Source: an uncultured Thermoplasmata archaeon
GTDB taxonomy: Archaea; Thermoplasmatota; Thermoplasmata; RBG-16-68-12
Length of the DNA stretch: 64,000 bases
Assembly: GCA_963768855.1 (NCBI GenBank)
Contig: CAVYJM010000018.1
Location: 111,626 to 175,625, forward strand
Direction of reading: 5' to 3'
Part shown: one piece after another, positions 2 to 60,666 of the stretch
Numbering within the stretch: position 1 is the first letter of the stretch
Layout of the letters: the number at the start of each line of letters is the position of its first letter
Program-made: the position numbers and the translations under genes
The notes under the pieces: generated by a model
Seen by the model: the letters and a program-made list of their open reading frames with translations, nothing else
Database searches by the model: none
What the model was told of the DNA's origin: nothing

Positions 2-853
2 GTGGTCACGGCACCGGTTGGCGCAGGCGTATTGAGGGCAGTAGGACTCGAGTCGAGAAGGAGCCCGCTCCTCGTCGAGCGGCCGTTGCGGCTGAAGGGG
101 ACAATCGGCCGTCCCGAGGACACCCTCGTCTACTTTTCCGATATCTACGCCCGGTTCAACCGCCCCGAGGTCGGTCGGCTCACGGAACGAATCCTCGCTG
201 CCCTCGGCTGGAACCTATTCCATCCCAGAGGGCAGACCGAGGCCGGCATGCCGTACCTCTCCTACGGCATGGTCCAGGCCGCGCGGCGCTCCGCCCAGCA
301 GAACCTGCGTGTCCTGGCTCCTTATGCAGAACGCGGATATCGGATTGTGGTCACGGAGCCCACGGCCCTGTACCTGTTGCGGAAGGTGTATCCGAGGTTG
401 GTGCCGGGTCCTCGGGCGGCGACCGTCGCGGGACGAAGCCTGGGCATCGATGAGGTCATTCTCCAGGAAATTCTACGAGGTGGACTCCAGCTCGCGAAGA
501 CGCGGCCTGCGTCCTCCCTTTTCTACCACGTCCCCTGTCATGCTCGGTCCATGGGTGCCCAGGCGTACCCAGGACTGCTGGAGCGCGCGGGCTACAAAGT
601 AACCGGGAGCGACGTAACATGCTGCGGGATTGGTGGATCCTTTGGGTACAAACACGGGCCTCTCGGTTACGACCTTTCGATGGTCATTGGAGAGGAGCTG
701 TTCGACCAGGCACGGAGATTCACTCAAGGGATTATCGCCACCGAAAGCTCGGTCTGTGCCATCCAGCTTAAGGATGGATTGGGTCTCCGAAAGGTGTTCC
801 ATCCCCTTGAGCTGTTCGAGGCCAAGCCGCCGAATCAAGCTCGGCCGGATTGA
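2..853 (+). CDS. Fe-S oxidoreductase, CCG-domain (GlpC/HdrD-like), C-terminal part; 5' end outside window
   Basis: YHVPCHAR and CCGIGGSFGY cysteine motifs typical of CCG domains; ORF open from the window edge. Confidence 0.75.
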   Translation: MVTAPVGAGVLRAVGLESRRSPLLVERPLRLKGTIGRPEDTLVYFSDIYARFNRPEVGRLTERILAALGWNLFHPRGQTEAGMPYLSYGMVQAARRSAQQNLRVLAPYAERGYRIVVTEPTALYLLRKVYPRLVPGPRAATVAGRSLGIDEVILQEILRGGLQLAKTRPASSLFYHVPCHARSMGAQAYPGLLERAGYKVTGSDVTCCGIGGSFGYKHGPLGYDLSMVIGEELFDQARRFTQGIIATESSVCAIQLKDGLGLRKVFHPLELFEAKPPNQARPD

Positions 854-895
854 AAGATGCGGTTCGCCTTCAAGCGGGTTTGCAGCGGGAGAGGA

Positions 896-968
896 CGCCC
901 CGGTCGGGATTCGAACCCGAGCACCCGGCTCGACAGGCCGGGATCATAGACCGCTAGACCACCGGGGC
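896..968 (-). tRNA. tRNA-Asp(GTC)
   Basis: Reverse complement GCCCCGGTGGTCTAGCGGTCTATGATCCCGGCCTGTCGAGCCGGGTGCTCGGGTTCGAATCCCGACCGGGGCG folds as a cloverleaf with GTC anticodon and GGTTCGAATCC T-arm. Confidence 0.95.
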
Positions 969-995
969 AGTGGGCGATGGCAACTGAAGGGGGCT

Positions 996-1006
996 AATTA
1001 GGCTTT
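996..1006. repeat. Left copy of 11-bp direct repeat AATTAGGCTTT; putative att core overlapping the tRNA-Asp BRE/TATA
   Basis: Identical 11-mer at 8396-8406; lies 28-38 nt upstream of the tRNA 5' end and 35 nt beyond the integrase stop. Confidence 0.6.
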
Positions 1007-1041
1007 GGGACCGATATCGTGCTTTCCCGTGGTGCCAAATT

Positions 1042-2115
1042 TCAGTCCAGGGCAAGCGACTTCACCGCCTCGCGGTACGTCTCCATGGGCTGGAGGCAGT
1101 ACGCGTCCCATGCGTCGCGGACCGCCCAGGCGCCCTGTCGTTGCAGGAAGAGCTCGGGTACGCCTTGGAGGAGTCCGTGGGTGTTCGCGGACCGCCGGAG
1201 GGTGTGCGAGGACACACGGACCTTCAGCCCGGCCCGCGCGGCGTACTCCTTGAACCTCCGGTTGTAGAGGTTCAGGTACACCTTCTTCGATGTCAGCGGG
1301 TCCCGGAAGACCGGGTCCTCGGGCTGCGGGTCCTTGAGCCGTTTCCACTCCTTGAGCCGCCGGGCCAGGCCCGCGTCCAAGAGTTTCTCCGCGTTCCAGC
1401 CGTGCTTTGACGGCCGCGGGTACGTCACCTTGGGCGGGGGTCCGAGTTCGACCTGGCCCCACGTCACGGTCCACAGGTCCTCGTGGCGGCCGATGGTCGT
1501 CCATTGGAACCGCGCGGCGAGGGACCAGGCGAAGTCCGATTCGGCCTCGGCGACGGCGAGCACGCGCTGGAGGTCCTCCTTGGAGATAGGCGCCCGGTTC
1601 TCCTTCGCCCGGTTGACCTCCTCTAGGGAGTACCGCTCCAGCTTTCGCCCCAGGTCGCGCACGCCGAGCCGGTCGAGTTCGAGTCGGTCGACCGCGTGCC
1701 GGAAGAAGCTCTGAATCGCGGAGACCCACACGTTGACCGTGTTCGGCTTCAAGGGTCGCCTTGAGTTCCAGGCACGCCGGTAGGCCTCGAGGTCTTCCCA
1801 GGTGACCTCCCGGAGGTCGGACTTCCCGAGGGACGCCTCGACCCACTCGAACGTCGCCCGCGCCTTCTGCGTGTACTCCCGGCGCGTGCCGGGAGCCTTC
1901 CGCTCGAGGTACGCGTCCCACTTGTCGAAGACCGGGCGCCAGGCCACGCGGACCGTGTGCTCGTCGGGTCCGTTGTCGGTGTCGCTTGCCGCGGGCTGCA
2001 TCTCCCACGGATTTCGGTCGTCGTTCCTCAGAATGGGCTGAGGCAGCTCGTCGAGCGTCACGACCATGGAGACGGTCGCGCCGCTGGCGCTCTGCCACAC
2101 TTGGGTTTCGCCCAT
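1042..2115 (-). CDS. int: Tyrosine recombinase/integrase
   Basis: Catalytic set recognisable: TIGRHEDL (R), PSKHG (K), SHTLRR (HxxR), QGAW, DAYC (Y). Start at 2115 or 2067; the 487-aa ORF call over-extends the N-terminus. Confidence 0.9.
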   Translation of the reverse strand: MGETQVWQSASGATVSMVVTLDELPQPILRNDDRNPWEMQPAASDTDNGPDEHTVRVAWRPVFDKWDAYLERKAPGTRREYTQKARATFEWVEASLGKSDLREVTWEDLEAYRRAWNSRRPLKPNTVNVWVSAIQSFFRHAVDRLELDRLGVRDLGRKLERYSLEEVNRAKENRAPISKEDLQRVLAVAEAESDFAWSLAARFQWTTIGRHEDLWTVTWGQVELGPPPKVTYPRPSKHGWNAEKLLDAGLARRLKEWKRLKDPQPEDPVFRDPLTSKKVYLNLYNRRFKEYAARAGLKVRVSSHTLRRSANTHGLLQGVPELFLQRQGAWAVRDAWDAYCLQPMETYREAVKSLALD

Positions 2116-2212
2116 CTCTGCGCACGACGACGGCATGGGCCTCGGAGGCTTAGAACCTTCGGGAGGAGACCCGCCGGTCCGACGAGCGACAAAACTGTTG
2201 TGCGCAGAGATG
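2113..2212. repeat. Perfect 13-bp inverted repeat CATCTCTGCGCAC / GTGCGCAGAGATG, 74-nt spacer
   Basis: Arms at 2113-2125 and 2200-2212; one arm contains the putative integrase ATG. Confidence 0.7.
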
Positions 2213-2260
2213 TCGTGACGAGGGCCGACGGGTCGGTCATCGGGAGAGGCGGGCCGCGCC

Positions 2261-2509
2261 TTAGGACTTTCCATGGAGCCTCCCGAGGGCTTCGTGTACA
2301 TGCGCGTCCGTGAGCCGGCGGACGGGCTCGAGGCGCTGCATGGCGCGGAGTTCGTTCTGGGACTGGAGGGAGCGGGCGGATTCCTCGGCGAACATCGCGG
2401 CGAGCTCCTCGAGGGCCGCGCTGAAGGCGACGACGGCGGACTCGGCGACCTGGCCGTCGGCGAGGCGGAGCCGGAGGAGGCGGCGCACGTCCGCGGGGCG
2501 GACAATCAT
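2261..2509 (-). CDS. Histone-fold protein (82 aa)
   Basis: Three-helix pattern aligns by eye to archaeal histones: ADVRRLL (a1), QVAESA...LEELAAMFAEES (L1/a2), RRLTDAHVHEAL (L2/a3); ATGA overlap with the upstream RHH gene. Confidence 0.6.
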   Translation of the reverse strand: MIVRPADVRRLLRLRLADGQVAESAVVAFSAALEELAAMFAEESARSLQSQNELRAMQRLEPVRRLTDAHVHEALGRLHGKS

Positions 2510-2721
2510 CGCCAGCGCTCCCCATGGCGGATGGTCGCGAGCTCCTTCTCCTTGTAGGCCAGGAAGCTCAGGAGAGCGGCTCGGACAAAATTCGCCCGGT
2601 CCCGGAAGTGGAACTCTGGGGCATCGACGAGGGCGTCCATCCGCTCGATTTCGAAGCGGGTGACGCTGACCGTGACGATGTGCTCAGCTTCGACCTCGGC
2701 GCTCGCGTTCGTCTCGTCCAT
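2506..2721 (-). CDS. Ribbon-helix-helix (CopG/Arc-like) DNA-binding protein
   Basis: IVTVSV strand, RMDALV helix, RDRANFVRAALLSFL helix; GGAGG RBS upstream of ATG 2721. Confidence 0.75.
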   Translation of the reverse strand: MDETNASAEVEAEHIVTVSVTRFEIERMDALVDAPEFHFRDRANFVRAALLSFLAYKEKELATIRHGERWR

Positions 2722-3032
2722 GCTTGTCCTCCTGTTCTGGTCTGAAGGCCTTCGTCTGGACCACAAGCTCGATGAGGAACTGGGGCTCGCGTCTCGGCGG
2801 GCGGTCCTCGGGGCTCACGGTCGGTCTCTCCTTCGCCGCATGGCGGCCGTCGTAGGGGGTGCTCGCCAGAAGCGGTTCCAGCGCATCCTGGGCCTCTCGG
2901 GCTCCTGGCAGGCCCTCGGGCCCGTCTGGGGCGGAAGCGTTCCCACGGCCCTTCTCGTCGTTTTTCTACCGAAGTAGAAGGTGGGTGCGGGCCGGGCTGG
3001 ACCCGACACGACCCGCACCGTTGATTCGGAAC

Positions 3033-3253
3033 TCACGCCCGCCCTCCGGCGCGGCAGGGAGCACAGACGACCTCGACCGCCTCGACCTCGGTCACGGGAC
3101 CGCCGCGGTTCTTGGCCCCGAACCCGCTGCCGAGGAGGAGCGTCGTGATGAACGGCTTCCGGCATCGCTGGCACGCCGCGAGGGCGGAGAGCTCGAAGAC
3201 CAGGCCGCTGGTCCGCGCCCCGAACGCCTCCCGGACGAGCTTGAGGTCGCCAT
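3033..3253 (-). CDS. Small zinc-finger protein (CQRC...CAPC); start region apparently frameshifted
   Basis: GC3-rich frame with two CxxC pairs; ATG at 3253 directly follows the previous TAG but is one base out of frame. Confidence 0.45.
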
Positions 3254-3436
3254 CTAAATCGCCGCCGTCACGACCAAGTTCAGTCGCTCGGAGACCCGCG
3301 CGTGTCGCTCGACGACCACGTTCTTGACGTTCATGTCCGTGATGCCGTTCGCCACGAGGAACGCGTCGATGGCCGCCTTCTGCTGGGCGTCGGTCTTCGT
3401 CGCATCGACAGTCAAGACGAAGGCGTGCAAGACCAT
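3254..3436 (-). CDS. Hypothetical 60-aa protein of the element
   Basis: GC3-biased codons, GGAGG upstream of ATG, protein-like composition. Confidence 0.6.
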   Translation of the reverse strand: MVLHAFVLTVDATKTDAQQKAAIDAFLVANGITDMNVKNVVVERHARVSERLNLVVTAAI

Positions 3437-3438
3437 GC

Positions 3439-3569
3439 TCAGGCCTCCCGCCGCCCGCGGACCCGAGTGACTCCCGGAGGAGGCGGAGCTCCGCGCGGTA
3501 CGGGGCGACCGCCTCCTCGACGGCGAGTCGCGTCAGCCGCGACGGGCCTGGGCTGGCCTGCGAAGACAT
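3439..3569 (-). CDS. Small helical hypothetical protein (AVEEAVAPYRAELRLLRESL); stop requires one extra G
   Basis: N-terminal part of the 178-aa ORF 3033-3569; out-of-frame TGA at 3439-3441 just before the next ATG. Confidence 0.3.
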
Positions 3570-3880
3570 TCTACGCGCACCTCGACTACTTGGTGCGCCG
3601 CGGCGATGCGGCCCGCTCCGTGACCCGCACGGAGCGCGGCGGCGTGCGAGGCGTTTACCTGGAGGCGACCGAGGACGGCGATTGCGCGAGCGCCCGCGCC
3701 CGCGCGACCGCCTGGCGGGAAATCCAGGATGTCACGGGGCGGGCGCGATGGCAAGGGAGGGGCCTGACGCCGCGGGAGTACTTCGACTGCCTGGAGGCGC
3801 TGGCCCGCGCCGGGGGCTTCCCCCGAAGCCCGGGCCGGGGACAGCGACGCGCGGAGTCGGGCGTCACGTGGGGCGAGTGA
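3467..3880 (+). CDS. Possible winged-HTH protein; start uncertain
   Basis: ASAATGLGWPAKTFYAHLDYLVRRG resembles a wHTH recognition helix followed by a wing; GC3-rich frame. Confidence 0.35.
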   Translation: MTPGGGGAPRGTGRPPPRRRVASAATGLGWPAKTFYAHLDYLVRRGDAARSVTRTERGGVRGVYLEATEDGDCASARARATAWREIQDVTGRARWQGRGLTPREYFDCLEALARAGGFPRSPGRGQRRAESGVTWGE

Positions 3881-3883
3881 CGG

Positions 3884-4140
3884 ATGCCCGGAGGTCCGGT
3901 CGCCATCGCGGGCGGTATCCTCCTCGTCGCGGAGCGGTCTTCCTGGTCCTCGCCATCCTCCAGGCGCAAGCGGGCTGCCTCGTCAACGCGACGTGGATGC
4001 TGGGCGCGGCCGCACTCGGACTCGGGCTCGGCGGCAAGGCAACCGTCAACCTCCCCGGAGGCCTCGTCGTCGCGGGCCCCATAGGCGTCGCCCTCATCGT
4101 CGCCTCGCTCGTCATCGGCCGCATGTACGGCGGCTGCTAG
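3884..4140 (+). pseudogene. Small 3-TM membrane protein with a -1 frameshift at 3931-3932 (pseudogene or sequencing indel)
   Basis: MPGGPVAIAGGILLVA joins GAVFLVLAILQ...GRMYGGC if one G is added to GCGGAG, giving about 85 aa. Confidence 0.55.
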
Positions 4141-4413
4141 CGGCCCTCCCGTTTCGCCTCGAGGGCCTCGCCGCGACCCCAGGGCCGCTCCCAGGGCGTC
4201 CCGGTCGCGGGACGGGCCCGAGGCCGTCCTCGAGGCCGGGCGCGTAGGGCGGGTCTCCTGCGCGTTTCTCCACCTGACATCCCCCTCCATGGACGGACAG
4301 CGGTCCCTCCATGCGGGACGACGCGCTCATTCGCCGGGCGTCGGGCAGCCTGGCGTATGCTTCGGAAGGCCCTCGAAAGGACTATATCTCCGGGAACGGG
4401 GTGGGGAGCCTCC

Positions 4414-4881
4414 ATGCAACCACCGTCGGAACCGCCGAAGAGCCACATCTGGCAGCGGCACCCGGGGCCCGTGGCGGGTCTGGTCATCGTGGGCCTGTTC
4501 GTCGTCGGCCTGACGGTCCTCATCGCTTGGCACGGTTACGGACTGACCGAGCCGCAGGCCAACGACTTTCTCAGCGCCACGCTGACCGTCACCGTAGGGC
4601 TCCTGGCTGGCGTCTTCTTCGTCGCGCAGCTGGCCATCTCGTCGCTCGCACGGCATCCGGCCGACCCGCGGCTGGGAGACCGGGAGGGCTGGGTCCTCGT
4701 ATTCCTCCTCGACATCGGCGCATTGTCCCTCGCGCTGCTATTCGCGGCCGCGGGCCTCGTGGGCGCTTGGTCCGCGACCTCAGCCGTCGCGGCCGTGGCG
4801 TTCAGCTGGTTGGCCGGAATGTTCCTCATCGCCTTCGGCATCTTCTTCTTCTTCGGGCGTGCCCCGCCGGGCGCGAGCTAA
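4414..4881 (+). CDS. Hypothetical membrane protein (about 4 TM)
   Basis: Four hydrophobic segments; AAAGGACTATAT promoter-like motif about 30 nt upstream. Confidence 0.7.
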   Translation: MQPPSEPPKSHIWQRHPGPVAGLVIVGLFVVGLTVLIAWHGYGLTEPQANDFLSATLTVTVGLLAGVFFVAQLAISSLARHPADPRLGDREGWVLVFLLDIGALSLALLFAAAGLVGAWSATSAVAAVAFSWLAGMFLIAFGIFFFFGRAPPGAS

Positions 4882-6710
4882 ACTCCCGGATTCTGAAGCC
4901 CGGCGGGACACCGGGCGTGCCGTCTCGCGTTCGCACCAACGTACTCCTGGCCGGAAACGATGGGCTGATGACACGTCTCGCACACGCCGAGGACGAGCGG
5001 CCGCTCAGGAGGCCGATGCCGCTCCAGGAGGGGCCGGGGCGATGCGGGGCCGAGCGTCGACCAGGTGCTCGGGAAGACGACGGGGCCCGGCTTCCCGCGC
5101 TCCCGCGTCAGGGTGCGGGACGCCAGGGCGAGGGAATCCGGGAAGTCGTCGTGCCCTCCCGCGGCCGCGTGCAACATGAGGTTGCCGCTCGCCGAGATGC
5201 GGTACTCGAAGGACGCGAGCTCGCGGAGGAGGTTCGCTTGCTGGGGCAGCGTGAGCTTGTCCGCCTCGAGGGCGGCCTTCAGGCGCGAGTAGAGCTCGAC
5301 CTTGGACGGTAGGCTGAAGGTCACGGGCTCGACTGGGAGGCCCTTCGCCCGGAGGAGGTCGTTGACCGCGTGCGCGGAGGCGTCCGAGTAGATGCGGCGG
5401 AAGCGCCAGAGCCCATGCAGCCACGCGACGTAGGCGACCTGGTCGACGTACGACGTCCCCTCGAAGGTCTTGAGCCAGAGGACGCGGCCGTGGCCCGACG
5501 CGTCGACGCCGACGACCGTGAGCACGGTGCGGTCGCCGCCCTCGACCCTCGCCCAGTCCGCGCCGAGGTACCTCGTCATCGCGGCGTGCTCCTCGAGCGG
5601 CGTCTCGACCAGGGGGTAGGCCTGCACGGCGCGGGCGACGAGCTCGGAGGGGAAGTACGCGTTCTGCGAGGACAGGAACGCGGCGTGGTACTCGGACTCG
5701 AAGGACAGGGAGTCCATGGACGCCCGCTCCTTCTCCAGGAACGCGGGGGCGATGAGGGGACAGCGTTCCGCGGGGACGTGCGACCGTGCGTACAGCTCCG
5801 AGTTCCACGCCCTCCAGAGGAAGCCGCTCTGCCCGAACGGCGTCGAGATGAGGACGACCTTGCCGCCCTCCGACGCCGCCAGGAACGGGCCCGCGGCCTG
5901 GTACACGGACTCGTCGACCCACGCGGCCTCGTTGAAGACGAGGAGGGAGACGCGGCTGAAGCCGCGGATGGTCACGCCGCCGGACATGCCGCCCGGCAGG
6001 GAGTACACGCGGCTCGCGTTCGTCAGGGAGAGTTCGGAGGAGGAGAGGTCGACAACGGACTCGCGGAGCTCGCGCCGGGAGAGGGCGAAACCCTGGAGGC
6101 GTTCCATCCACAGGTCGCTCTGCCGCTGGGAGGGTGAGACGCACACGACGACCGCGCCGGGACGGACGACGGCGAGCCAGAGCGCGTACAGCGCGGTCAG
6201 GTGGTCCTTGCCGCTCTGCCGCGACCACACGAGGGCCGTGCGGTCGTGTCCGCGGATGAGCTCCAGGGCGTCGGCCTGGTAGTCGAAGAGGGAGACGCCG
6301 AGCCAGGTCAGGAACGCGGCCGGGTCCTCGACGAACCGGCGGACGAGGTTGTCGTCAAGACGCTCTATCGCGGGCTCCGGCTCTGGGGCGAGGCCGAGGA
6401 GGGACGCGACGCGGGCCGCCAGGCCGCCCTCCTCCCGCCGGGGGCGAGGCGGGCCGCCCGAGCCGGCGAGGGTCGAGGGCCTGCGGACGCCGAGGCGCGA
6501 CAGCCGCTGCCGGATGTTGTCCCGCGACGTGTCGAAGCGGTCCGCCAGGTACGCGGTCGACTTGCCCTCGAGGTACAGGTCCCTCAGGAGGGCGTCCTCC
6601 TGGGCCGTCCACTCCCTCGGACGGCCCGGCTTCCCGGTCACGACGGCACCTCGCTCCTCCCTGGAGAGGCCCGTGAATCCTCGAGGCGCGACCTCGACGG
6701 TTGAGGGCAA
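4878..6710 (-). CDS. terL: Terminase large subunit (Terminase_6-like) with N-terminal HTH and C-terminal Zn finger
   Basis: Walker A WSRQSGKD, Walker B LLVFNEAA, coupling motif ISTP, RNase H-like nuclease motifs YLGADWA / YSDAS / HDDFPDSLALA. Confidence 0.88.
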   Translation of the reverse strand: MPSTVEVAPRGFTGLSREERGAVVTGKPGRPREWTAQEDALLRDLYLEGKSTAYLADRFDTSRDNIRQRLSRLGVRRPSTLAGSGGPPRPRREEGGLAARVASLLGLAPEPEPAIERLDDNLVRRFVEDPAAFLTWLGVSLFDYQADALELIRGHDRTALVWSRQSGKDHLTALYALWLAVVRPGAVVVCVSPSQRQSDLWMERLQGFALSRRELRESVVDLSSSELSLTNASRVYSLPGGMSGGVTIRGFSRVSLLVFNEAAWVDESVYQAAGPFLAASEGGKVVLISTPFGQSGFLWRAWNSELYARSHVPAERCPLIAPAFLEKERASMDSLSFESEYHAAFLSSQNAYFPSELVARAVQAYPLVETPLEEHAAMTRYLGADWARVEGGDRTVLTVVGVDASGHGRVLWLKTFEGTSYVDQVAYVAWLHGLWRFRRIYSDASAHAVNDLLRAKGLPVEPVTFSLPSKVELYSRLKAALEADKLTLPQQANLLRELASFEYRISASGNLMLHAAAGGHDDFPDSLALASRTLTRERGKPGPVVFPSTWSTLGPASPRPLLERHRPPERPLVLGVCETCHQPIVSGQEYVGANARRHARCPAGLQNPGV

Positions 6711-6784
6711 ACTGTCATTATGTCACCAGGGGCCGCGTCACGGGCCCGGGGTTGCCCCGGCGACCTTTTTGTACGTGGGGAGCC

Positions 6785-7387
6785 GTGTCCGAGCCCGTGA
6801 AAGTCGCCACTGTCCTGGCAATCCTCGACCTCGCCATGATGGTCGTCCTCGGGGCCATCCTCATCCTCGGGTGGCTGTTTGCGCTGGCCTTGCGCGATGC
6901 GGCCTGGGCCGTCGCGGCAGCGACGATTGCCTTGGCCATGGCCACGATGTTCCAGCTGCGTCACTCGGCGGCCCTGTCGAATCAAACCAAGGCGCTCACT
7001 GAGGCCACCCGCGACCTCAACCGAATCGAAGAAAAGCGGGACCTCCAGGCCCGTCTCGGGAGGGCGATTGCCGCCGCGGACGCCTTTCTGCTCCTCAGCC
7101 CGGACGCGGTCAAGGTCAAATTCACACAGGGGATGGTCGACGCTCAATTCAGGGGCGGTCTCTACGCGCTCGCTAACTACACGGACCTGTTCTCCGACGA
7201 CGCCCGCAAGTCGCTGATGACCTGGCGTGACTACGTCGAAGGGCTCCATCCGTTCGAGGCGGGAAAGTACCTGTTCTCCTCGCCCTCCGGTGCGGACGGG
7301 GCGAAGCAGCCGGGCGAGGTTCGAGACCTTCAGACGCTCGTCGAACGCGAGGCACGCGCCTGGCGCGAGAGGCTCGTCAAGCTCTGA
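6785..7387 (+). CDS. Membrane-anchored hypothetical protein (2 TM, coiled coil, soluble domain)
   Basis: N-terminal hydrophobic helices then amphipathic helix; GTG start at 6785. Confidence 0.65.
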   Translation: MSEPVKVATVLAILDLAMMVVLGAILILGWLFALALRDAAWAVAAATIALAMATMFQLRHSAALSNQTKALTEATRDLNRIEEKRDLQARLGRAIAAADAFLLLSPDAVKVKFTQGMVDAQFRGGLYALANYTDLFSDDARKSLMTWRDYVEGLHPFEAGKYLFSSPSGADGAKQPGEVRDLQTLVEREARAWRERLVKL

Positions 7388-7419
7388 CGGGGGGTCGGGG
7401 TTCCCCGGCGAGTCGTTCG

Positions 7420-8310
7420 TCATGGCGATACCTCGGGAACCTTTCGGGGAACCGCACCCGCCTTCCCTCCCGTGCGAGCCGGGGAACCGTCCGGGGAACC
7501 GTGCTCCTTCATGTGCCGCTTGACCTCCCGGCGGAGCATGAGCATGGCCTCGGAGTTCTCCCGGACCTGGAGGGCGAGCGCCTCGAGCTTGGCGTCGCGT
7601 CCGACGGGCTGCCGCCGCTCGAAGAAGGCCTCGAGCTCGTCCCACGAGAGCTTGACCGCGGGCGGACGCACCTCGACGCGGGCGAGGGTGCCGCGTCCGT
7701 CCTCGTGGTTGTACGCCTTGAGGAGGAGACCCTCCGCGTCGAGGTAGGTCCGCGCCTCGACTCCCTCGAACCTCGCCGACGCCCCGTCCCGGAAGGCCTC
7801 GAAGGTCAGGGTGGCCTCCGCGTCCCGGTCGAAGGGGAGGCCGAGGAGGGCGAGGACGAGGTGTACCTCGGACAGGGTGAAGCCCCGCGGGGAGAGGAGC
7901 CGCAGCTCGAGGGTCGAACCGCCCACGACGACCTCCGCGGCCCCTTCGAGATGCGGCAGTGGGACCGCGGCGGTCAGCTTGTGGTCTCCGCGGTCCTTCC
8001 AGGGGCCGAGGGCCGCGAGCCGACCCGACGAGGGGAGGGAACCGGGGGAGACCGTGTCTGGGTCGGTTCCCCCGACGATGCGCACGTTCTGCAGGAGGAC
8101 GGGGCCGAGGAGCGAATCGAGGCTCGGCCGGTGAGCCTTGCGCCAATCATGAAGGAGCCGCTTCGCGTACCCCGTCGTCACATGGAGACGGGCTGCGACC
8201 TCGCCAGGTTTGCGGGCGAGCTCCGGGTGCTCGTCGAGGTAGGCGAAGACGCGAGCTCTTGCCGTGGGGGACGCGGTCGACGTTCGTTCGTCCCCCTGGT
8301 AAAGGTTCAT
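7420..8310 (-). CDS. HTH-containing protein, possible Rep_trans-like rolling-circle initiator
   Basis: N-terminal HTH (PGEVAARLHVTTGYAKRLL); TFEAFRD / KAYNH / ARVEVR echo Rep_trans motifs; GGAGG RBS before ATG 8310. Confidence 0.45.
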   Translation of the reverse strand: MNLYQGDERTSTASPTARARVFAYLDEHPELARKPGEVAARLHVTTGYAKRLLHDWRKAHRPSLDSLLGPVLLQNVRIVGGTDPDTVSPGSLPSSGRLAALGPWKDRGDHKLTAAVPLPHLEGAAEVVVGGSTLELRLLSPRGFTLSEVHLVLALLGLPFDRDAEATLTFEAFRDGASARFEGVEARTYLDAEGLLLKAYNHEDGRGTLARVEVRPPAVKLSWDELEAFFERRQPVGRDAKLEALALQVRENSEAMLMLRREVKRHMKEHGSPDGSPARTGGKAGAVPRKVPEVSP

Positions 8311-8395
8311 GGAACCCTCCGCGTCGACCATGTCAGAGAGTCCTCCGGCTGTCCGTCGAAAAATGAGAAAAAGGGTTCAGGGAACGACTATTTCG

Positions 8396-8406
8396 AATTA
8401 GGCTTT
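8396..8406. repeat. Right copy of 11-bp direct repeat AATTAGGCTTT; putative att core
   Basis: Identical to 996-1006; lies between the last element gene and the first host gene. Confidence 0.6.
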
Positions 8407-8490
8407 TGTCTCCACGGTCCGGAATGTCGCTATCCTCTGGCTCCGGAGCGGCGCCCGCTGACTCGAGAACCTGAAGGCGCGCCCCCTTCG

Positions 8491-9075
8491 CTACGATTCG
8501 CGTCGCTCGAGGAGAGGCCACAGGGCCAGAAGCAGGATGACGCACACGAGGGCGGCCGCCAGAACGAGGGCCGTGGGGATTGTGGTCACAGGGAGCGTGC
8601 CCGCGAGGGCAAGGTCCGCCGCGAGGGTCGATCCCAGGAACGCGATCCCGGAGACCGCCACGATCCGGACGAGGGAGCGCTGCAGGGCGGACCCGAGCCG
8701 CTCCCGATCCTCTGCCTCCAGGGAGCCCACGTAGAGCGGGACGAAGCGGTCTGCGACGAGCCGCAGCTCCACCGCGAAGAGCGCCAGCGTCAGGAACCCG
8801 ATCGAGGACGCCGCGTCCAGAGGCAGGAGGACAATGTGCACCGTGAGATAGGCCGCCACCAGGAGACCGAGGCCGAAGCGGCGAAGCGGGCCGTACTCGA
8901 TCCGGATCCCCAGGAGGGTCGCCGCGAGCGCGACCAGGAGGGCGACCACGAAGTCCTGGCGAAGCGCCGTCGACGGGATGTCCAGGAAGTCGACCAGCGC
9001 CCACGCGAACAGCGCGAGCGCGACGAGCACGGGCAGGACCGAGAGGATGATCGCGGTCAGGCGGGACGAGGCCAC
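8491..9075 (-). CDS. Hypothetical membrane protein of the MoxR cluster
   Basis: Multi-TM; GTG start with GGAGG RBS; overlaps the DUF58 gene end. Confidence 0.7.
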   Translation of the reverse strand: MASSRLTAIILSVLPVLVALALFAWALVDFLDIPSTALRQDFVVALLVALAATLLGIRIEYGPLRRFGLGLLVAAYLTVHIVLLPLDAASSIGFLTLALFAVELRLVADRFVPLYVGSLEAEDRERLGSALQRSLVRIVAVSGIAFLGSTLAADLALAGTLPVTTIPTALVLAAALVCVILLLALWPLLERRES

Positions 9076-10325
9076 GATCGCATCCTCCGGAGCGGCAAGG
9101 CAAGCGGCGTCTGCGGGTCCCAGTCCACGACCTGTGCCACCTGCCGCATCTGGGAGATCAGGTTGTCCCGCTCCATCCGCAGGATCCGGTACGCCGTCTC
9201 GCGCTGCGTCGACCCGGCGAAGACGTGCCGCTCGATCTCTAACGGCGACGGAGAGAGGACGGACACGTCGTAGCCGCGCGCGGCGAGGACCATCACCGCC
9301 TCGAGCGCGGACCGGTCCGTGAGCGGAGTGATGAGCACAACGAGCGCGTCCCGCGGAAAGTACCGCGTCAGGACCCAAGTGACGAAGGAGAACGGCCACT
9401 CGCCGCCTGCGCGCACGTGGATCAGGTGGTCCAGGATGCGGTAGAGCTGCTTCTTCCCGAATGCGGGCGGGACCCAGTCGAGCACGTCCCGCTGGACGAT
9501 GAGCCCGACGCGGTTCTTCGAGGCGAGGACGTGCTCCGCGACCCCGAGCGCGGCCCGCACGCCGACCTCGACCGCGTTCGCCGTGGTCGTGCCGACCGCG
9601 CTCTCCGCCCGCGCGTCCAGGAGGATCACGACGTCTCCAGACCGGTCGCCCTGGTACTCGTTCGAGTAGAGGTCGCCCAGCCGGGCGGAGACCTTCCAGT
9701 TGATCCGACGGACATCATCCCCGGAGACATACTCCCGGACGCCCCAGAACTCGGATCCCGCGCCGATGTGCCGCGACGGCACGTGTCCGAACCAGGGACG
9801 CGTGCGGCGGGGCCCGAGCTGCGCCCGTCCGAGGGACTCCATCGCCGGGGCCACGGTGAGGGTCGTGGTCGCGGGGACGATGAGGTCCTCGACCCCGAGG
9901 CCCAGCGCATCGAGGGCCCGGAGCCGCAACGGCCCGATCGGATATTCGCCTTTCAGGGTGGGCCGCACGACGTACGTGATGTCCACGGTCTCCCCCGCGG
10001 CGAGCGGGAGGATCGTGTGGTTCGACCCGCGGACGACCGCGAGCTCCGGCGGCAACGTGTCGAGGCATTCGAGGAGAGCGATCGCCGCGCCCTCGTTCTT
10101 CAGCTGGACGGCCACCTTCGCCTCCATGCCGACGGAGAGGCGGTCCCGCGACACGGTGCGCGCGACCGCCACGCCGGGCCTCGGCGGCGGGTCCAGGGAC
10201 CCGAGGGCGAGGAAGACGAGGGGCGGGAGGGACAGAAGCACGAGGGGCCAGCTGCGCAGCGCGAGTCCGGCAAGGAGGGCCGCCAGGGCGATCGCGACCA
10301 GGCCGCTGGCCAGCGGGGTCCGCAT
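9057..10325 (-). CDS. DUF58 domain protein (MoxR-associated, vWA-like)
   Basis: EFWGVREYVSGDDVRRINWKVSAR motif; downstream of moxR. Confidence 0.9.
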   Translation of the reverse strand: MRTPLASGLVAIALAALLAGLALRSWPLVLLSLPPLVFLALGSLDPPPRPGVAVARTVSRDRLSVGMEAKVAVQLKNEGAAIALLECLDTLPPELAVVRGSNHTILPLAAGETVDITYVVRPTLKGEYPIGPLRLRALDALGLGVEDLIVPATTTLTVAPAMESLGRAQLGPRRTRPWFGHVPSRHIGAGSEFWGVREYVSGDDVRRINWKVSARLGDLYSNEYQGDRSGDVVILLDARAESAVGTTTANAVEVGVRAALGVAEHVLASKNRVGLIVQRDVLDWVPPAFGKKQLYRILDHLIHVRAGGEWPFSFVTWVLTRYFPRDALVVLITPLTDRSALEAVMVLAARGYDVSVLSPSPLEIERHVFAGSTQRETAYRILRMERDNLISQMRQVAQVVDWDPQTPLALPLRRMRSWPRPA

Positions 10326-33239: not shown

Positions 33240-33309
33240 CGGGGCTGGGAATCGCTTTCCGGCAATCGAAGGAAAGCCTTTATCCCGTACGCCCCGTGCC
33301 GGGGGGGCC

Positions 33310-60648: not shown

Positions 60649-60666
60649 GGGGGCTATTTAAGGCTT
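60649..60666 (-). promoter_or_regulatory. BRE/TATA promoter of rps3ae (AAGCCTTAAATAGCCCCC on the minus strand)
   Basis: About 25 nt upstream of the ATG; near-identical to the tRNA-Asp upstream motif AAAGCCTAATTAGCCCCC. Confidence 0.6.

Follow-up and report, generated by a model that had tools for sequence, protein, structure and literature searches.

How does a mobile element come to lie beside an intact tRNA gene without a second piece of that gene at its far end? A split or duplicated tRNA gene is the usual guide when integrative elements are mapped in bacteria and archaea, and no such mark is to be seen around the 7.4-kb mobile element considered here, which is found in a soil and wetland Thermoplasmata archaeon. 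The element lies within a 64,000-nucleotide stretch of DNA (hereafter the window; C18:111626-175625 of the G000 assembly, a genome that is 93.6% complete), next to the gene for tRNA-Asp(GTC) at 893..969 on the minus strand. This gene is called intact by ARAGORN, has the same sequence in 10 same-genus genomes, and is both the only tRNA in the window and the only tRNA-Asp found in the genome. An earlier, sequence-only reading of this DNA had suggested that the integration site is the tRNA promoter and not the tRNA gene, and had pointed to a short repeated sequence that would bracket the element.

Both copies of this repeat are where that reading had placed them. The 11-mer AATTAGGCTTT occurs at 996..1006, between the tRNA and the integrase gene of the element, and again at 8396..8406, both times on the plus strand, so that the two are in direct orientation and 7400 bp apart. 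They are the sole copies genome-wide (2,865,160 bases in 24 contigs), and the reversed sequence, used as a control pattern, has a count of 0. Simple base frequencies at ~70% GC lead one to expect ~0.06 copies of such an AT-rich 11-mer per genome, and a second direct copy only 7.4 kb away is therefore not due to chance. Between the copies lies an element body of 7389 bp (1007..8395), or 7400 bp when one core is included. With the mature 5′ G of tRNA-Asp at ~968, the left copy is 28-38 nt upstream of the gene, in agreement with the distance claimed earlier. A search for tRNA-Asp fragments at the far element end or inside the element returned chance 11-mers only, so that the claim of no duplicated fragment also held. 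With its core upstream of the gene and no tRNA fragment, the element is thus not one of the classical tRNA-gene kind.

Some traces of tRNA-Asp do occur on the other side of the gene. A 21/22-nt copy of the tRNA-Asp 3′ end and the bases downstream of it is found at C18:103605-103626, ~8 kb left of the window start and 8.9 kb past the tRNA 3′ end, in the same orientation, and 13-mers from the same 3′ region are found at C18:102884 and 109436. Additionally, the gene to the left of the tRNA, which encodes a CCG-domain protein (window 2-853), does not adjoin tRNA-Asp in relatives. To judge by these matches, classical islands may occupy the 3′ side of the same tRNA-Asp.

To the right of the element there is a host membrane-protein gene (8491..9399, minus strand) with orthologs in 25 of the 40 relatives searched. 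In the 10 same-genus genomes that we inspected, tRNA-Asp shares a short locus with this ortholog, and the two are mostly direct neighbours. The closest relative, G009, in which the ortholog has 72% amino-acid identity, has an empty site that reads GGGGGGCT-AATTAGGCTTT-TGTCTCC and contains one copy of the core. The spacer between tRNA-Asp and the ortholog in this genome (...GGCAACTGAGGGGGGCTAATTAGGCTTTTGTCTCCGGAG...) is 122 nt long, compared to 121 nt predicted from joining the window flanks. Metagenomes provide two further examples. A ~96%-identical contig from a wetland run (X2) passes from position 995 to 8396 and so lacks 7400 bases, the 11 letters at the joint fitting either side, and a 100%-identical contig from a freshwater-sediment run (X1) stops at 1006 and continues with TGTCTCCACGGTCC, which is window 8407-8420. 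The second run also has 100%-identical pieces of the element, and occupied and empty alleles were found together at 100% flank identity. The empty site that had been predicted from the sequence of the occupied one, ...GGGGGCT-AATTAGGCTTT-TGTCTCC..., is thus seen in G009 and in both contigs, all of which lack the element body.

The whole element was also recovered a second time, on Logan contig L025 (8164 bp; run ERR12035932), which spans 977-8425 at 99.8% identity and carries 706 extra bp (L025:4894-5599) at window ~3535-3539. The insert includes a 133-aa gene that is not in the window copy. The contig ends at 977 and 8425, exactly 19 nt past the core on each side. Logan contig graphs are built with k = 31, and since 19 + 11 = 30 = k-1, these ends are what a branch of the assembly graph at the core would produce; as a supporting point only, they fit a mixture of occupied and empty alleles in run ERR12035932. 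A different arrangement is seen at locus L005 (G013:C65, 395-1500), where ~1.1 kb separates tRNA-Asp from the membrane-protein gene, compared to ~120 nt in G009, and where the promoter motif reads CTAATTAGCTTTT; something else may sit inside this spacer.

To see what the core corresponds to, we took 70 nt of upstream sequence for each of the 40 tRNA calls in the genome and refined from these a 14-nt promoter matrix. Its consensus, AAAACCTTTATATG, is a purine-rich BRE followed by a TATA box, and this BRE/TATA motif is found for ~30 of the 40 calls, with starts from -33 to -43 and a mode of -38. For random 70-nt genomic pieces the 99th percentile of the best score is 9.8 bits. The tRNA-Asp promoter, AAAGCCTAATTAGC (993..1006, minus strand), starts at -37 with a score of 14.9 bits and is kept in ten relatives, where the plus strand reads CTAATTA followed by either GGCTTT or TCCTTT. 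By position (counted from the tRNA 5′ end), score and conservation, 993-1006 is thus an archaeal BRE/TATA element. The att core makes up positions 1-11 of the 14-nt motif, which is to say the BRE and the first five TATA bases, and as it consists of the BRE and the 5′ half of the TATA box this argues for a crossover within the promoter, outside the tRNA gene. Once the element is integrated, the tRNA-proximal junction has the sequence AAAGCCTAATTAGCCCCC again, and nothing has changed but the stretch preceding the BRE, which is now the tail of the integrase gene. Around the core we saw no clear dyad symmetry other than the TATA palindrome CTAATTAG, and when the predicted attP was scanned for dyads or repeated arm-type sites, the palindrome CGATATCG and one 7-mer were all that came up.

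The suggestion that the integration site is the tRNA promoter is thus borne out, both by a core that fills 11 of the 14 positions of the BRE/TATA motif and by empty sites that break at the 11-mer. The promoters that had been offered for comparison are also present, as AAGCCTTAAATAGCCCCC at 60649-60666 (minus strand) and AAAGCCTTTAT at 33273-33283. The promoters of this genome have AAAGCC-type BREs in common, and both copies of the 11-mer score as promoters, from which it might be argued that the two are independent promoters that match the BRE/TATA consensus by chance, with the true borders elsewhere, for example inside the tRNA gene. However, G009 and the two metagenome contigs break exactly at the 11-mer and leave one copy, there is no further copy in 2.87 Mb, and there is no duplicated tRNA fragment, so that we give this explanation next to no credence.

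Between the repeats there is an intact tyrosine integrase together with about ten other genes, several of them small. The integrase (357 aa; 1042..2115, minus strand), whose 3′ end points toward the tRNA, is fixed at these coordinates by an identical 357-aa protein (P0001). It matches PF00589 with 29.6 bits (cut-off 27.1) as well as SAM-like N-terminal domains, and scores far under the equivalog cut-offs for XerA, XerC and XerD. In an alignment of 9 homologs, R210, K237, H304, R307, W330 and Y339 are invariant, which identifies it as a tyrosine recombinase, and because these catalytic residues are all present the enzyme looks active, as far as its sequence can tell. The reading frame is whole and its stop codon is followed by the core at a distance of 35 nt, which distinguishes the element from the “suicidal” SSV/pTN3 type, where attP lies within the integrase ORF and integration splits the gene. 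Directly upstream of the integrase are two small overlapping ORFs (2261..2766, minus strand; from the ORF list), which have homologs at the same position in two related elements, G019 and L034, and no family match in Pfam or NCBIfam. More speculatively, these may be candidate accessory proteins or recombination directionality factors, by analogy with SNJ2 (PMC5861418). A 587-aa protein (4878..6641, minus strand) resembles a large terminase (phrog_2, terminase large subunit, E 5.7e-38) and is 36-38% identical to homologs in G019 and L034. We recognised neither a capsid nor a portal gene in the element, which may be satellite-like or a reduced provirus.

At the distal end the junction reads, on the minus strand, GGAGACA-AAAGCCTAATT-CGAAATAGTCGTTCCCTGAACCCTTTTTC..., and the core with its next 3 bases is AAAGCCTAATTCGA, which scores 13.1 bits compared to 14.9 for the tRNA copy. 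This lies 75 nt upstream of an ATG at 8331, itself preceded at 10 nt by GGAGG. This ATG and another at 8310, both named in the earlier reading, head a 303-aa ORF, the first gene of the element (7420..8331, minus strand), which has high GC3 in frame and is 49% identical to the first gene of L034. The “rep-like” label given to it is unsupported, as the 303-aa protein belongs to no Pfam, PHROG or NCBIfam family and has no usable Atlas match (best 0.78). Six nucleotides after the core lies a conserved motif, AGTCGTTCCCTGAACC, followed by a T-rich run (8374..8389, minus strand); it is exact in the window and in G019, and found with two mismatches at the same position after the core of L034. One could speculate that it is an integrase binding site, or else part of the first-gene promoter. 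The junction had also been thought to place a second promoter core ahead of the first element gene. Such a core is indeed present, but it is not created by the junction and belongs to attP: since the core is common to attP and attB, it precedes the first gene in the circular form too, and the junction changes only what stands upstream of this promoter-like sequence. Its matrix score and the conserved motif downstream make it plausible that the first gene is transcribed from the distal copy.

Relatives of this integrase are few. We found one in 37 other genomes of the genus, 8 proteins in a set of 5.8 billion, and 8 metagenome loci. A search of genome contigs with the single integrase gave no match, while a search with the alignment found only G019 in genome contigs and nothing in viral contigs. 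Both junctions could be placed for two of these relatives, as for the query integrase of the window. The G019 element (15.6 kb, integrase 42-43% identical) and the L034 element (9.0 kb, 42%) both lie in the promoter of an operon with a small ORF and deoxyhypusine synthase, for which there are empty sites in 7 genomes. The former is flanked by the 18-bp repeat CGCGCCGGAATAGTATTT and the latter by the 14-bp repeat CCGGAATAGTATTT. For G019, the left junction runs from ...CGCGCCGGAATAGTATTT into CGGTCCAGTCGTTCCCTGAACC... and the right one from ...CGCGCCGGAATAGTATTT into ATACGGTCGG..., the second having been located by mapping the flank of an empty-site genome, G003, where the site runs from GAGCCGGAAGAGTATTT into ATACGC and the neighbour gene is 97% identical. 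Here the TATA-distal half, ATAGTATTTATAC, falls outside the core. In L034, CGGACGTCGCTCCCTGAACC comes after the left copy of the core. Each of the three solved elements has a shared core that stops at the fifth base of the TATA box (TAATT or TATTT) and a host gene in the same orientation, so that the order is integrase, core and then host gene, with the host promoter restored exactly. Beyond the core they read CG, a few bases, the motif GTCGYTCCCTGAACC and a T-rich run, and they have a common backbone of the first gene, the terminase-like gene, the small ORFs and the integrase.

The same layout is seen at other host promoters, though for three of the five targets only a single junction is available. 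The closest of these integrases (L028, 67% identical) lies at the promoter of pgk, where homology to five empty-site genomes begins 20 nt past the integrase stop codon. A second (L026, 54%) lies at the promoter of a tRNA-Leu(TAA), AAAGGCATTATACCG, which is kept in seven genomes of the genus, and a third (L031, 44-45%), for which there is no empty site, lies at a promoter-like motif before a gene that by eye resembles UDP-GlcNAc 2-epimerase. The exception is L027 (48%), which has no promoter target; a convergent gene follows its integrase gene, after which no promoter-like motif was found. Overall, 7 of the 8 loci have a promoter-like motif (9.0-14.9 bits) at a distance of 25-38 nt past the stop codon of the integrase gene. 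Second core copies for L026, L027, L028 and L031 were not found on their contigs, which are too short to reach the far end. These loci point to a group of archaeal integrases that uses promoters as landing sites.

The solved relatives also bear on whether the repeat is an att core at all. Transposition likewise leaves short direct repeats around an insertion, and the 11-mer could accordingly have arisen as a target-site duplication, through the action of an enzyme resembling a transposase or Cas1. We consider this very improbable, since the element has no transposase or Cas1 gene, its ends are not inverted repeats as would be found in a transposon or casposon, and the intact tyrosine integrase ends just 35 nt from the core. 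Moreover, the length of the repeat varies (11, 14 and 18 bp) within one integrase family, as would be expected of identity between attP and attB and not of a duplication with a fixed length. G019 and L034 agree in the sequence on the integrase side, from which it follows that the element carries the core.

A different objection concerns mobility and preference, namely that the element is a fixed, immobile relic and that its integrase family does not prefer promoters as such, most AT-rich DNA in a genome of 70% GC being promoter DNA anyway. L027, which is at no promoter, agrees with this, as does the fact that AT-rich overlap regions are frequent for tyrosine recombinases, compare the intergenic site of PsiM100 (PMC8371274). 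Additionally, the attP junction that had been predicted (...GACTATTTCG-AATTAGGCTTT-GGGACCGATATC...) was not observed among the joints and loose ends listed for the contig runs; these comprise contigs and no RNA runs, and none of them returns from 8395 to 996 as a circle would. The empty sites, for their part, could stem from strains that were never infected. Against this, the integrase and all of the genes are intact, the two copies of the element are 99.8% identical and differ by a 706-bp indel, occupied and empty alleles lie side by side at 100% flank identity, and every solved core stops at the same TATA position with the host gene co-oriented. On balance a relic without promoter preference seems unlikely to us, and the element may still excise.

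What we propose instead is integration into the promoter: the 7.4-kb element has very probably entered the tRNA-Asp BRE/TATA by conservative site-specific recombination at an 11-bp core common to attP and attB. The two sites would have only this core, AAAGCCTAATT on the tRNA strand, in common, and an identity of 11 bp is short. Exchange inside the shared core would leave the tRNA with a complete BRE/TATA and its start site, with only the DNA upstream of the tRNA-Asp BRE swapped for the integrase gene's 3′ end. The second copy of the core would remain ahead of the first element gene, as in the circular form, and because the distal core fronts this gene there too, attP itself would be embedded in promoter-like sequence. 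The reaction is probably catalysed by the integrase that the element encodes. Tyrosine recombinases have an overlap region of 6-8 bp that must match in both partners. By analogy, this region would lie inside the 11-bp core, where strand exchange presumably occurs, and the integrase would bind flanking sequences that differ between attP and attB.

As to why promoters should be chosen, one thought is that the clade has specialised on the BRE/TATA since TBP and TFB, when bound there and bending the DNA, act as architectural or targeting cofactors. These would be roles comparable to those of IHF for lambda and TFIIIB for Ty3. We think this is improbable. Were it true, integration and excision would be coupled to promoter occupancy, and new targets could be gained by switching among host promoters that resemble the attP promoter of the element.

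The genes whose promoters appear to serve as attachment cores in this group are essential or conserved ones (tRNA-Asp, tRNA-Leu, pgk and the deoxyhypusine-synthase operon). Targeting such promoters would bring the same benefit as targeting tRNA genes, a conserved site with preserved host function, though by another route, and site-specific integration by a tyrosine recombinase with promoters and not gene bodies as targets is a new twist on a known process. There is also a practical consequence, as an element that recombines in a promoter leaves no split or duplicated tRNA and would therefore be missed, or given the wrong borders, when such marks are relied upon. The arrangement raises the questions of whether expression of the host gene changes on insertion, and whether transcription factors take part in the recombination. 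Short promoter-embedded cores with varied specificities might also be of use in archaeal genetic tools.

Our literature search, which was limited, brought up no integrase from a prokaryote with a tRNA promoter or a TATA box as its target. According to a 2021 review of archaeal tyrosine recombinases, tRNA genes are the main targets, with pTN3-like enzymes using the 5′ half, and a few coding or intergenic sites are listed but never tested (PMC8371274). A text search of this review gave no mention of TATA and no promoter-embedded att sites (PMC8371274).

Several known systems nevertheless resemble the element in part. As in the non-split integrases of the pNOB8 and SNJ2 type, the integrase gene is intact after integration, attP lies tens of nucleotides downstream of it and the core is short. 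SNJ2, for instance, has a 14-bp core and an integrase co-transcribed with two small accessory proteins (PMC5861418), and two small ORFs also precede the integrase here, a likeness of description and not of sequence. Unlike the element described here, whose core is wholly in the promoter, those of the pNOB8 and SNJ2 type recombine inside tRNA genes and leave a duplicated fragment. The position of the element on the 5′ side of the tRNA is shared with the pTN3-like integrases of Thermococcales, for which this arrangement has been called unique in archaea (PMC8371274). In contrast to these, the present element has an unsplit integrase and leaves the tRNA with an unaltered gene body and its own BRE/TATA. 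Another partial match is the PsiM100 prophage of Methanothermobacter wolfeii, which also has an AT-rich att site outside any gene and is reported to leave transcription of the neighbouring genes unaffected (PMC8371274). That site is not described as a promoter, whereas the core found here coincides with the BRE/TATA, as do those at several targets of related integrases. In outcome the nearest parallel is the yeast retrotransposon Ty3, whose insertions fall within narrow limits just ahead of tRNA genes, without disrupting them (10.1101/2021.07.27.453949). The likeness is one of outcome only, as Ty3 uses a retroviral-type integrase in a eukaryote, whereas here a tyrosine recombinase would act on a core that is defined by its sequence.
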